Below are positions 11,238-29,799 of a stretch of 62,118 bases of DNA, piece by piece; the stretch's first letter is position 1; every line of letters starts with the position of its first letter. Both the position numbers and the translations under genes were made by a program. The DNA is taken from the NCBI GenBank assembly GCA_964640635.1, contig CAZXFD010000005.1, positions 1 through 62,118 on the forward strand, given 5' to 3'. Source of the DNA: an uncultured Gammaproteobacteria bacterium. GTDB lineage: Bacteria > Patescibacteriota > Patescibacteriia > UBA1558 > S5-K13. The notes under the pieces were generated by a model that was given only the letters and a program-made list of their open reading frames with translations, did no database searches and was not told the origin of the DNA.

Positions 11238-12290
11238 GTGCCAGCAATAGAACAATTACAATTAAATGAACTCATAAATCAAGCCATAAAAGAGCAAGTA
11301 AGCTCTATTTATTTCAATATAAGTAATTATCCTACTGTAGAAATTTTTGGTTCGCTCAAGTCTTTAAAAGACAAGCCAATTCTTACAAAAGAATTTTTGG
11401 AAACAATAGCTTCTAATTTTTTGTCAGATAATCAAAGAAGAATGTTGGATGAAAAAAAAGAGCTAAAAGTTGCTTATGATTGGTCTGCAAAAGTAAGATT
11501 GATTATGAATTTTTTTTATCAAAAACAGTCTCTTTCTATTTCTATAAAAATAGTCCCAACCCAACTAATGGATATTAATGATTTTGAGATTTCATCTATT
11601 ATGCAACAAGCAGTAGGTATGAATTCTGGCCTTGTAATAATTTGTGGGCCAGCATCATCAGGACGTAGTATGACTGTTTTATCGATGATAGATTATATAA
11701 ACAAAAATCAAGAAAAAAGAATAGCCACAATAGAAGAGCCAATTGAATATCAGTTTGTAAATAATTTGTCTATAATAAATCAAAGAGAAGTGGGTCTTGA
11801 TGTTGAATCTTTTGAAGAAGGACTCAAAAATGTCATTGATGAGAGTGTCGATGTAGTATATGTTTCTAAAATTCAGTCAAAAGAAGAAATAAATCTTGTA
11901 TTACAGGTTGCCTCTTCTGGTAAGCTAGTTTTTGTGATTATAGATAGTGAGTCAATAATAGAGCTTTTGGATAAAATTTTTGGAAGTTTTGATTTGTCAG
12001 AAAAAGAATGGGCAAAAAGCCTTGTAACAGAGTCTTTAAAAATTATTATAAATCAAAGAATGTTTCAAAAGGTGGGGGGCGGTCAAATAGTAACAGCAGA
12101 AGTTCTTACAATGACTCAATCAAGTAAGCCAATAGTAAAGTCATTTAAATTTGATCAGCTTAAATCAATAATGCAAACATCTAGAAGAGAAGGAATGCAA
12201 GATCTAGATGGAGTTATTAGAGATCTTTTGCAACGCGGGGTAATTAGATCAGAGGAAGCAAAAAAATATTTATCATCATTAAGTATATAA
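11238..12290 (+). CDS. pilT: PilT-family protein with degenerate catalytic motifs
   Basis: PilT-like layout (EPIEY, INQREVG, SIMQTSRREGMQ) but Walker A GPASSGRS, Walker B VYVSK, His box lost. Confidence 0.8.
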   Translation: MPAIEQLQLNELINQAIKEQVSSIYFNISNYPTVEIFGSLKSLKDKPILTKEFLETIASNFLSDNQRRMLDEKKELKVAYDWSAKVRLIMNFFYQKQSLSISIKIVPTQLMDINDFEISSIMQQAVGMNSGLVIICGPASSGRSMTVLSMIDYINKNQEKRIATIEEPIEYQFVNNLSIINQREVGLDVESFEEGLKNVIDESVDVVYVSKIQSKEEINLVLQVASSGKLVFVIIDSESIIELLDKIFGSFDLSEKEWAKSLVTESLKIIINQRMFQKVGGGQIVTAEVLTMTQSSKPIVKSFKFDQLKSIMQTSRREGMQDLDGVIRDLLQRGVIRSEEAKKYLSSLSI

Positions 12291-26639: not shown

Positions 26640-27176
26640 TCAGTTACTGGGATTATTTTGTATATATTTTCTACATTTCCACAAATCATTTTCTGTCCTG
26701 ATAATATGTTCGTAATAGGATGTCTGCCAACGAAAACATATTGCGTGATTTACCAGATTTATTTTTTTAGATGAAAATGTTTTAAATCCGCGAATCATTT
26801 CAAATAATGGATATGGTTTGTATTCCGTAGAGGCGGGTTTGTAACCCGCCTCAGAGATGGGTTGCAAACCCATTTCTACGTGTTTATTGAAATTTACATA
26901 TTTTATTTTAATAATTCCGTGGAAATGATTCGGCATTATAACAAATGAATCCAAAATACAATTTTTATAATGATTTGGTAAATCACGCCAACAATGTTTT
27001 ACAATATATTCCAATCTATTTGACACCATTTTTTCATTTATAATTTCACCAAACATCTTTATTTTATTCTTGATACAGATTGTAACAAAATAAAAACCAG
27101 GATTAGAATAATCCCAGCAATTGAGTCTCGTTGATTTAATTCTATATTTATTTTTAAATAAGGCCTTGTTTTCCAT
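26640..27176 (-). mobile_element. HUH Y1 transposase, REP-associated (RAYT)-like
   Basis: RL..WDYS.PG.YFVTIC, MPNHFHGII (HUH), WQ.SYYEHIIR, YIQNNP catalytic Tyr. Confidence 0.85.
26826..26880. repeat. Inverted doublet of GTAG REP hairpins inside the transposase CDS
   Basis: GTAG-AGGCGGG-TTTGTAA-CCCGCCT (+) and GTAG-AAATGGG-TTTGCAA-CCCATCT (-). Confidence 0.85.
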
Positions 27177-28796: not shown

Positions 28797-28972
28797 TCTC
28801 TGGAATTATAAAACAAGCTCGCAGGTTTAATACATGCGAGTTTTTATTTTGATATCATTGAATGAGAAGTCGAATGATTTTATAAAAATGAGTTATATGG
28901 CCTCATAAGAGGAGTTGACTAACTTTACCTCGAGGAATCTAATATGCGCCATGGTGGTATGCCATGAACTCC

Positions 28973-29000
28973 TTGACAAATATTTTAGATGTGCTATAAT
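28973..29000 (+). promoter_or_regulatory. Consensus sigma70 promoter driving a non-coding transcript
   Basis: TTGACA-N16-TATAAT with extended TG. Confidence 0.75.
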
Positions 29001-29006
29001 AGCTTA

Positions 29007-29188
29007 TACAATATACATTAACAATTGTTATTATATTTCTACCTGTCAGTAGTTTTTGGTTGCCCCCCTCCTGGCGGCCTTAAATGCAAGTTAGGTGATG
29101 TTCCTTGCTTCGGCTTGTGAATAGCATCTACACTGACTGGTAGTAATATGCTAATAATACATGACCCGTCATTTTGATAGGGTTTTTT
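29007..29188 (+). ncRNA. Candidate structured ncRNA, about 180 nt, unknown family (6S-like long closing stem)
   Basis: About 30-bp closing stem 29024-29052 with 29128-29158, two internal hairpins, own promoter and ACCC/GGGT plus T-run terminator, no ORF on +. Confidence 0.7.
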
Positions 29189-29195
29189 GTTTTTT

Positions 29196-29230
29196 AAAAA
29201 AAGGGCCAGGACCAGCGTGGGTCCTGGCCC
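29196..29230 (-). terminator. Minus-strand intrinsic terminator (perfect 11-bp GC stem)
   Basis: GGGCCAGGACC/GGTCCTGGCCC followed by T7 on minus strand. Confidence 0.7.
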
Positions 29231-29310
29231 CAAATTTAGATTGACAAATTAATATAATAGTTATAATATCAAATGTTAGCAATAAAGCTAATTAAAATTA
29301 GGAGGAAAAA

Positions 29311-29799
29311 ATGAAATATTCACTTTTTATGCTATTAGTCATTGTGATTTCGCTGTTTTCTTTTGGATGTGAATCAAATCCTGTAGAGATAACAGCAACT
29401 GGAAATAACACCGTCTACATAGGTCCAAATTCTGGGTTACCAGGTAATTGTGAGTGGTTTATAATGTATATGACTAATCACGGCCCAGCAATTTTGGCGG
29501 TTAATGGTCCAGCAACTGCCGTTGGGTATCAGATTAGAAGTGGTGCAACCATATATTTTCAAGATAGATATGTTGGTCCTAACGGGGATTCATATCAGTA
29601 TGGTAGCTACTTGCCCTTGGATACTTGGTTGGAGTTTAATTATGTAATTTTCAAGTCTTCTTTTTCCGGTTGGCTTTGGCCTATAGCTGATTTCTGGGTT
29701 GGACTAAATGATGCAATTGTTGAATCTAGCTATCAGTGGCAAGTCAAATTTGTAGATAATGGAGATGGAAATTTACAAGTTGAGCTAGCCGATGAATAA
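29311..29799 (+). CDS. Orphan putative lipoprotein, beta-rich
   Basis: TTGACA at 29241, AGGAGG at 29300-29305, signal peptide ending FSFG|C; terminator at about 29811-29840. Confidence 0.75.
   Translation: MKYSLFMLLVIVISLFSFGCESNPVEITATGNNTVYIGPNSGLPGNCEWFIMYMTNHGPAILAVNGPATAVGYQIRSGATIYFQDRYVGPNGDSYQYGSYLPLDTWLEFNYVIFKSSFSGWLWPIADFWVGLNDAIVESSYQWQVKFVDNGDGNLQVELADE

Follow-up and report, generated by a model that had tools for sequence, protein, structure and literature searches.

In Firmicutes, small RNAs (sRNAs) such as RsaE/RoxS, like the C-rich hairpins of RNAIII, act in an Hfq-independent style, with UCCC/CCCC loop motifs that pair with G-rich Shine-Dalgarno (SD) sequences and block translation (PMC6158497, PMC8216469). 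In Bacteroidia, the anti-SD sequence is sequestered by bS21/bS18/bS6, the SD-led genes respond to bS21 occupancy, and the rare SD-led rpsU is autoregulated (PMC7797042, PMC9976891). The locus considered here lies at positions 28973-29195 of the plus strand of contig CAZXFD010000005.1, which was analysed over 62,118 nucleotides (hereafter the window) and has a GC content of about 31%. It is a stand-alone sRNA gene and the founding example of an undescribed RNA family, the most deeply conserved element of which is an exposed apical loop containing an anti-SD sequence.

Patescibacteria, also known as the candidate phyla radiation (CPR), are ultra-small and mostly uncultured episymbionts, and to our knowledge no regulatory RNA has been characterised in them. 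A new RNA family with good support offers a concrete entry point to post-transcriptional control in these organisms. By the names carried by its nearest Pth homologues, the organism of the window belongs to Patescibacteria/CPR. The locus had been singled out in a reading of the sequence alone, referred to below as the original prediction.

Structure and conservation of the RNA

The 183 nt from 29008 to 29190 folded with a minimum free energy (MFE) of -55.9 kcal/mol, compared with -38.4 ± 4.0 kcal/mol for dinucleotide shuffles (z = -4.36), and none of 200 shuffles was equally stable. The MFE fold reproduced the closing stem, the P2 hairpin and the UUCG-capped arm described in the original prediction, and corresponds to a three-way junction with a core of about 140 nt, made up of the closing stem P1, the hairpin P2 and the UUCG-capped arm P3 (Table 1).

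The conservation of this fold was evaluated on alignment A6, which contains ten sequences (the window copy and nine close homologues) and for which RNAalifold proposed a structure of 50 pairs in three helices. Standard pairs occupied 98.0% of the paired cells (88.3 ± 0.9% in shuffled alignments), and 23 of the 50 pairs had changed on both sides (14.0 ± 2.0 in shuffled alignments), a number reached by none of 500 shuffles. In a control in which the 3' partners were slid by 1-3 columns, only 34-49% of the cells were paired, with at most 8 two-sided-change pairs. Compensatory changes affected all three helices: P1 (10 of 24 pairs, 97.5% paired), P2 (6 of 11 pairs, 99% paired) and P3 (7 of 15 pairs), including the pair closing the P3 tetraloop, flipped from C-G to G-C in homologue L030. 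Compensatory substitutions in 23 of 50 pairs, the structural signature of an sRNA gene, were found across ten distinct homologues, as the covariation check proposed with the original prediction called for. The RNA is encoded on the plus strand, as settled by numerous G-U pairs and by the covariance model, which scored 154.7 bits there and 29.1 bits on the minus strand.

The most deeply conserved element of this structure is the P2 apical loop, presented by the upper stem as GGUUGCC[CCCCUCCU]GGCGGCC (29058-29079). The loop CCCCUCCU, including the CCUCCU whose conservation the original prediction had made a test of its claim, showed no change in any of the 10 homologues, whereas the stem below it covaried, and its unpaired probability was about 1.0 in every homologue. 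In the divergent copy of locus L022 the loop reads UCCCUCCU and is the only sequence block retained. The other invariant blocks were GUAGUU at the top of P1, GCAAGU(UAG) in the junction strand J2/3, the P3 apex UUCCUUGCUUCGGCUUGUGA, UACAC, and the AUAUUUCU/AGUAAU segment of P1.

Promoter, terminator and independent transcription

The perfect promoter noted in the original prediction was present as described, matching the consensus at 12 of 12 positions, and was the single occurrence of an exact TTGACA-N16-18-TATAAT in the 62-kb window (shuffle mean 0.13). By its sequence, it is of a strong, constitutive type. Transcription would start near 29007 (+) and yield an RNA of about 185 nt. A TTGACAA...TGnTATAAT-type promoter was kept upstream of the RNA in 10 of 10 close homologues, and L022 carried the version TTGACA-N17-TAACAT. 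The short leader was missing in L009 and L007, where the start would fall at the foot of P1.

The intrinsic terminator was likewise found where the original prediction had placed it, although a simple terminator scan missed its hairpin because of a stem mismatch. A hairpin followed by a U-run occurred 1-8 nt past P1 in all 11 copies, L022 included. Its position is conserved and its sequence unrelated between lineages, it does not overlap P1, and its strength is moderate (-6.5 to -10.8 kcal/mol among the close homologues with a folded hairpin).

A promoter of its own, together with a divergent terminator that does not overlap the conserved fold, gives the locus the anatomy of an independent sRNA gene and not that of a riboswitch or attenuator, and the positions of both signals are conserved across homologues. 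It is very probable that 28973-29195 (+) encodes a real, new and independently transcribed structured sRNA.

Table 1. Features of the sRNA gene and of the unit that follows it, in window coordinates.
Feature	Positions	Strand	Description
Sigma-70 promoter	28973-29000	+	TTGACA-N16-TGcTATAAT; 12/12, perfect -35 and -10, extended -10
5' leader	29007-29023	+	Short, non-conserved; diverged or deleted in alignments beside a near-invariant core
P1, 5' strand	29024-29050	+	Carries invariant block AUAUUUCU, with U-U mismatch, opposite AGUAAU
P2 hairpin	29052-29085	+	Lower stem GUUU/AAAU, UU/UU internal loop, 7-bp upper stem
P2 apical loop	29065-29072	+	CCCCUCCU (8 nt); includes CCUCCU, complement of AGGAGG
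Junction strand J2/3	29086-29091	+	GCAAGU, single-stranded; invariant in 9/10, GCAAGC in L030
P3 arm	29092-29130	+	Near-invariant apex UUCCUUGCUUCGGCUUGUGA; UUCG tetraloop 29109-29112
P1, 3' strand	29132-29158	+	Preceded by the single junction nucleotide C29131
Intrinsic terminator	29163-29195	+	Hairpin 29163-29184 (-7.4 kcal/mol), then UUUUUUGUUUUUU to 29195
Neighbouring unit, may belong to the system	29241-29799	+	Promoter 29241-29269, SD AGGAGG 29300-29305, 162-aa lipoprotein-like orphan 29311-29799

In the subclade formed by L003, L016 and L023, the conserved promoter is displaced upstream by about 95 nt. The segment between it and the RNA core (L003:12736-12840(-), and its counterparts in L016 and L023) contains an extra 5' hairpin, GCAGGGAA/TTCCCTGC, that covaries (GCGGAGAA/TTCTCCGC in L016), and from its sequence would be a lineage-specific 5' domain of the RNA.

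Homologues, synteny and distribution

A search of genome contigs with Der returned one species-level relative (L002, 87% amino-acid identity in Der), and Pth homologues (57-70% identity), together with one lipoprotein homologue, led to further syntenic contigs. These loci share the order LytR-Der-Pth-(one or two small genes)-[~400-nt gap]-DprA or DPBB gene. In all homologues found with nhmmer and covariance model R1, the RNA was located in the gap between pth and dprA/DPBB, on the same relative strand. Close homologues were identified in L002, L009/10, L007/8, L003/4/17, L023, L016, L012-15, L020/21 and L030/32, i.e. nine distinct sequences that make ten with the window copy, to which the divergent L022 is added. 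Only one copy of the RNA is present in the window. Its core shared 98.6% identity with that of L002, and the leaders and the sequences upstream of the -35 box were unrelated.

At L022, whose Pth is 51% identical, a weaker RNA match (22.9 bits, E ~0.005) shared its site and orientation with the close homologues. This copy has a long P1, a P2 with an 8-nt loop and a short, unrelated P3, in a core of about 118 nt (fold z = -4.36). It has kept neither J2/3 nor the P3 apex, and the RNA converges directly on pth, with no adjacent lipoprotein gene. In the more distant pth neighbourhoods of L026-L029 (Pth about 51-54% identical), no RNA homologue was detected within 10 kb.

An exact-pattern scan of JGI metagenomes (CCCCTCCT..GCAAGTTAG..TTCGG) produced four matches, two of which were real (L016, and L017, identical to L003); the other two (L018 and L019) were chance matches without the hairpin and without an nhmmer match. 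On the JGI 3300075153 contig carrying P0094, which is nearest to the L022 type, a gene-free gap of 496 nt separates pth and dprA. This gap is the obvious place for another divergent copy, as a candidate site only.

As the wide searches were few and based on exact matches, the distribution obtained is a lower bound; it looks narrow. The RNA is a family of a low-GC, SD-poor clade of Patescibacteria, located at a fixed syntenic site. The contig of L002 (CAZWVD010000022.1) is titled "uncultured Gammaproteobacteria bacterium"; its gene order, GC content of 31% and 87%-identical Der fit this Patescibacteria lineage, so that the title probably reflects an error of binning or naming.

Shine-Dalgarno usage and proposed pairing in trans

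In total, 55 of the 64 likely genes of the window had no SD-like motif before the start codon and displayed A-rich start contexts instead (e.g. AAAAATATG). The full AGGAGG preceded three window genes only (29311; 35354, minus strand, 180 aa; and 53546, 289 aa), and GGAGG or AGGAG was present before alternative starts of three further open reading frames (ORFs). Five of these six SD-led ORFs had no Pfam match, the sixth (ORF 28299) being a DPBB_1 protein, which upholds the claim of the original prediction that SD-led genes are here almost only orphans. The first of them, the lipoprotein-like gene, lies downstream of the RNA on the same strand in 10 of 10 close homologues, sometimes with a gene of about 142 aa in between, and the SD of these downstream genes was of the GGAGG type in most loci and AGGAG in L012 and L020.

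The preferred reading of the function, which is tentative and held at less than even confidence, is that the sRNA loop would pair in trans with the SD sequences of those few mRNAs that carry one. P1 and the junction would hold P2 out as a rigid presentation arm, from which the loop would pair with a GGAGG/AGGAGG SD over 5-6 nt in SD-led orphan or accessory mRNAs, including that of the lipoprotein neighbour. Such pairing may occlude the ribosome-binding site or alter mRNA stability, as do the C-rich loops of RsaE/RoxS and RNAIII. When the RNA, masked to its unpaired segments, was compared with 61 start regions, the loop was the predicted pairing partner of the five best, with energies between -10.1 and -10.8 kcal/mol (median of all regions -4.9 kcal/mol), and all five belonged to SD-led orphans. 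The loop-SD duplexes predicted in silico comprised 6 bp, with energies of about -10.5 kcal/mol.

Several observations weigh against pairing in trans. The loop-SD complementarity covers only 5-6 nt, as in any pairing of an SD with an anti-SD, and the target prediction is nearly circular: random 45-nt windows reached -11.1 kcal/mol at the 1% quantile, and the high ranking of SD-led starts is almost true by construction. The complement of the full loop, AGGAGGGG, was absent from the ribosome-binding sites of 194 kb of related DNA, and its sole non-self occurrence was inside a gene of L030, as chance predicts. As no site matches the full loop, the invariance of all 8 loop bases is left unexplained by SD pairing. 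The big invariant blocks outside the loop (J2/3, the P3 apex and the P1 U-U motif) are atypical for a purely base-pairing sRNA and suggest a protein partner or a tertiary structure. At L022, the RNA is retained without the lipoprotein gene beside it, and no strong SD was detected in the 13.7 kb examined; SD-poverty also characterised L026 and L028, which had no RNA match within 10 kb. Lastly, the adjacency of the RNA to SD-led genes is inherited synteny and not independent evidence.

Alternative explanations

The serious, main rival to pairing in trans, doubtful in itself, is that the RNA is a protein-binding mimic of the anti-SD, in which the loop would imitate the 3' tail of 16S rRNA and the junction, the P3 apex and the P1 U-U mismatch would form a protein-recognition surface. 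It would titrate or scaffold a factor recognising the anti-SD, for example a bS21/bS18/bS6-type pocket or an enzyme processing or modifying the 16S 3' end, and would thereby tune the number of ribosomes able to read SD-led genes. The invariance of all 8 loop bases, beyond what SD pairing needs, is consistent with such a role, as are the invariant blocks outside the loop, among them the conserved P1 U-U mismatch flanked by invariant pairs. The start contexts of the window are Bacteroidia-like (A-rich, 55 of 64 genes without SD), and Bacteroidia offer a precedent: there bS21/bS18/bS6 hold the anti-SD, and the rare SD-led genes are sensitive to this (PMC7797042, PMC9976891). No candidate partner protein was, however, linked to the locus, and L022 has retained neither J2/3 nor the P3 apex, two parts of the proposed recognition surface.

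It is rather improbable that the RNA is a cis-acting 5' leader or attenuator of the lipoprotein operon, whose loop would mask the downstream SD on the same transcript after partial read-through. The constant position of the RNA upstream of SD-led genes and on their strand, in the ten close homologues, would suit such a leader, as would terminators of moderate strength (-6.5 to -10.8 kcal/mol), but these terminators differ in every lineage and neither overlap nor compete with P1, and no switch is apparent. Moreover, the 24 pairs of P1 would not plausibly be displaced, the loop-to-SD distance is about 230 nt, and in the window, L002, L009 and L007 a second promoter of the TTGAC type separates the RNA terminator from the gene that follows, while the RNA of L022, converging on pth, has no downstream gene at all.

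Alongside a trans-acting silencer, the original prediction had offered a divergent 6S-type RNA, which would bind the RNA polymerase holoenzyme as an open-promoter mimic. This option was not supported and is very unlikely. Its length (about 165-185 nt) and long closing helix recall 6S RNA, and the strong promoter suggests abundance, but a search with permissive filters, extended to E = 10, gave no 6S or 6S-Flavo match. In the covariation-supported structure the junction is also one-sided: its 5' strand is a paired hairpin plus 6 nt and its 3' strand a single nucleotide, not the two-stranded central bubble that 6S RNA requires. The L022 core, moreover, measures only about 118 nt.

The probability that the locus is no RNA gene, but a fortuitous hairpin, a gene for a small protein or a repeat, is negligible: mechanical ORFs of 45, 31 and 27 aa do overlap the region, and to that extent the original statement that the plus strand has no ORF was too absolute, but none is credible, as all lack an SD, conservation extends to neither a start codon nor an SD, and variation in the alignment has no codon periodicity (25, 24 and 22 variable columns at the three frame positions), and the compensatory changes in 23 of 50 pairs, the single copy in the window and the conserved promoter and terminator all speak for an RNA gene.

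Other features of the locus and its relatives

The 162-aa lipoprotein-like protein encoded downstream of the sRNA had no Pfam match and only four matches in a homologue search. Its family is fast-evolving, with a signal peptide and a Cys lipobox, and its AlphaFold model (predicted local distance difference test score, pLDDT, of 53) was not used for a fold search. Between the sRNA terminator and the lipoprotein promoter, a GC-rich, near-perfect palindrome (GGGCCAGGACC..GGTCCTGGCCC; 29202-29231) forms a 12-bp stem with 9 G-C pairs. It is followed on the minus strand by TTTTTTT and is terminator-like in that direction, with no minus-strand gene feeding it. The palindrome was found only in the window and L002, and occurs once in the window.

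On the other side of the RNA, the window segment that reaches to dprA comprises a Y1 transposase gene, a 330-aa orphan and the DPBB protein, and has the look of a region of variable insertions. The weak IS200-like Y1 transposase gene, of the type associated with repetitive extragenic palindromes, was found in the window (26640-27176, minus strand) and in L003 (11358-11960), and not in other relatives. Cassettes resembling diversity-generating retroelements (DGRs) were located 6-9 kb from der in L003 (1197-4084) and L005, with RVT_1, bAvd and an Lcl_C-domain target, and the stretch shown of L012 (58-1571) contained bAvd and Lcl_C only. On L028, a more distant Patescibacteria contig, a unit of about 150 nt with a promoter (TTGACA-N17-TGTGCTATAT) and a terminator was found upstream of an Sm_multidrug_ex gene (12070-12260, minus strand); its sequence is unrelated to the sRNA and includes a purine-rich GGGGAGAG stretch.

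Implications for SD-poor lineages

The invariant element of this RNA is a copy of the anti-SD, in a host that has largely abandoned SD-led initiation, and it bears on the question raised by the work on Bacteroidia of what role the rare strong SDs play in SD-poor lineages. An unlikely but far-reaching possibility is that in this clade the SD no longer serves as a general signal and has become an address tag on accessory and orphan genes, read by a dedicated, abundant anti-SD RNA that would either mask the SDs, and in this way gate every SD-led and possibly foreign gene, or divert, as a decoy, the machinery sequestering the ribosomal anti-SD. If true, either mode would be the first case of an RNA-based "SD gatekeeper" acting genome-wide, and the RNA would be the first sRNA of the CPR placed in a functional frame.

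Comparison with known RNA families and regulatory systems

Searches against Rfam 15 at the gathering threshold recovered tRNAs only, three of them from the window and another four from nine related loci, and no rRNA from any of this DNA. A permissive scan of 28850-29300 (E up to 10) found no 6S, signal recognition particle (SRP), RsaE, ribozyme or riboswitch family. The sub-threshold matches (MicC, MicF, VrrA and others) were driven by terminators or AT-rich sequence, and mostly by the minus-strand hairpin at 29202-29231. Literature searches likewise returned no described family resembling the sRNA. Its original designation as an unannotated structured non-coding RNA is supported, and the Rfam check against 6S, SRP and other families found no match.

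Other identities were considered and rejected. The hallmarks of SRP RNA are a GNRA tetraloop on helix 8 and conserved internal loops of the AGCA/GGAA type. The sRNA had no Rfam match to bacterial SRP (4.5S) RNA, and its apical loop is a UUCG with U-rich internal loops, not the helix-8 GNRA. A riboswitch or attenuator was discarded on account of the terminators, which are clear of P1 and differ per lineage, with no conserved anti-terminator and a P1 of 24 pairs. Retron msr-msd and DGR RNAs were excluded as no reverse transcriptase is adjacent and the DGRs of relatives are 6-9 kb away, and guide or bridge RNAs associated with insertion sequences as most loci have no copy of the weak Y1_Tnp gene. 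Hammerhead and other ribozymes, tmRNA, RNase P, 5S and Y RNA gave no Rfam matches, and no conserved small hydrophobic ORF of a type I toxin-antitoxin system was found.

Among described RNAs, 6S RNA (RF00013; 6S-Flavo, RF01685) is similar in length, in its long end-to-end helix and, judging from the promoter, probably in high expression, but the sRNA has no covariance-model match to it and no two-stranded central bubble. Cyanobacterial Yfr1 and similar sRNAs carry an ultraconserved unpaired pyrimidine-rich motif. With Yfr1 the sRNA shares a short, invariant, single-stranded pyrimidine-rich element framed by structure and confined to one lineage, whereas its sequence is unrelated, its scaffold much larger, and no Rfam match connects the two.

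The resemblance to RsaE/RoxS and S. aureus RNAIII lies in an unpaired C-rich loop in a low-GC host, here conserved across homologues as the best-conserved element of the RNA. The sRNA has one such loop, whereas those RNAs have two or three, and they have neither its closing stem of 24 pairs nor its three-way junction, the strands of which are invariant. It matches neither Rfam RsaE nor any other family in sequence or structure and, unlike the hosts of RsaE/RoxS, its host genome barely uses SDs. In this last respect the locus is like the SD-blind Bacteroidia, with a genome-wide lack of SDs, A-rich starts and a handful of very strong SDs. In Bacteroidia, however, regulation is exerted by a ribosomal protein and rpsU is the gene led by an SD, whereas here the SD-led genes are orphan and lipoprotein genes, and a separate RNA bears the copy of the anti-SD.
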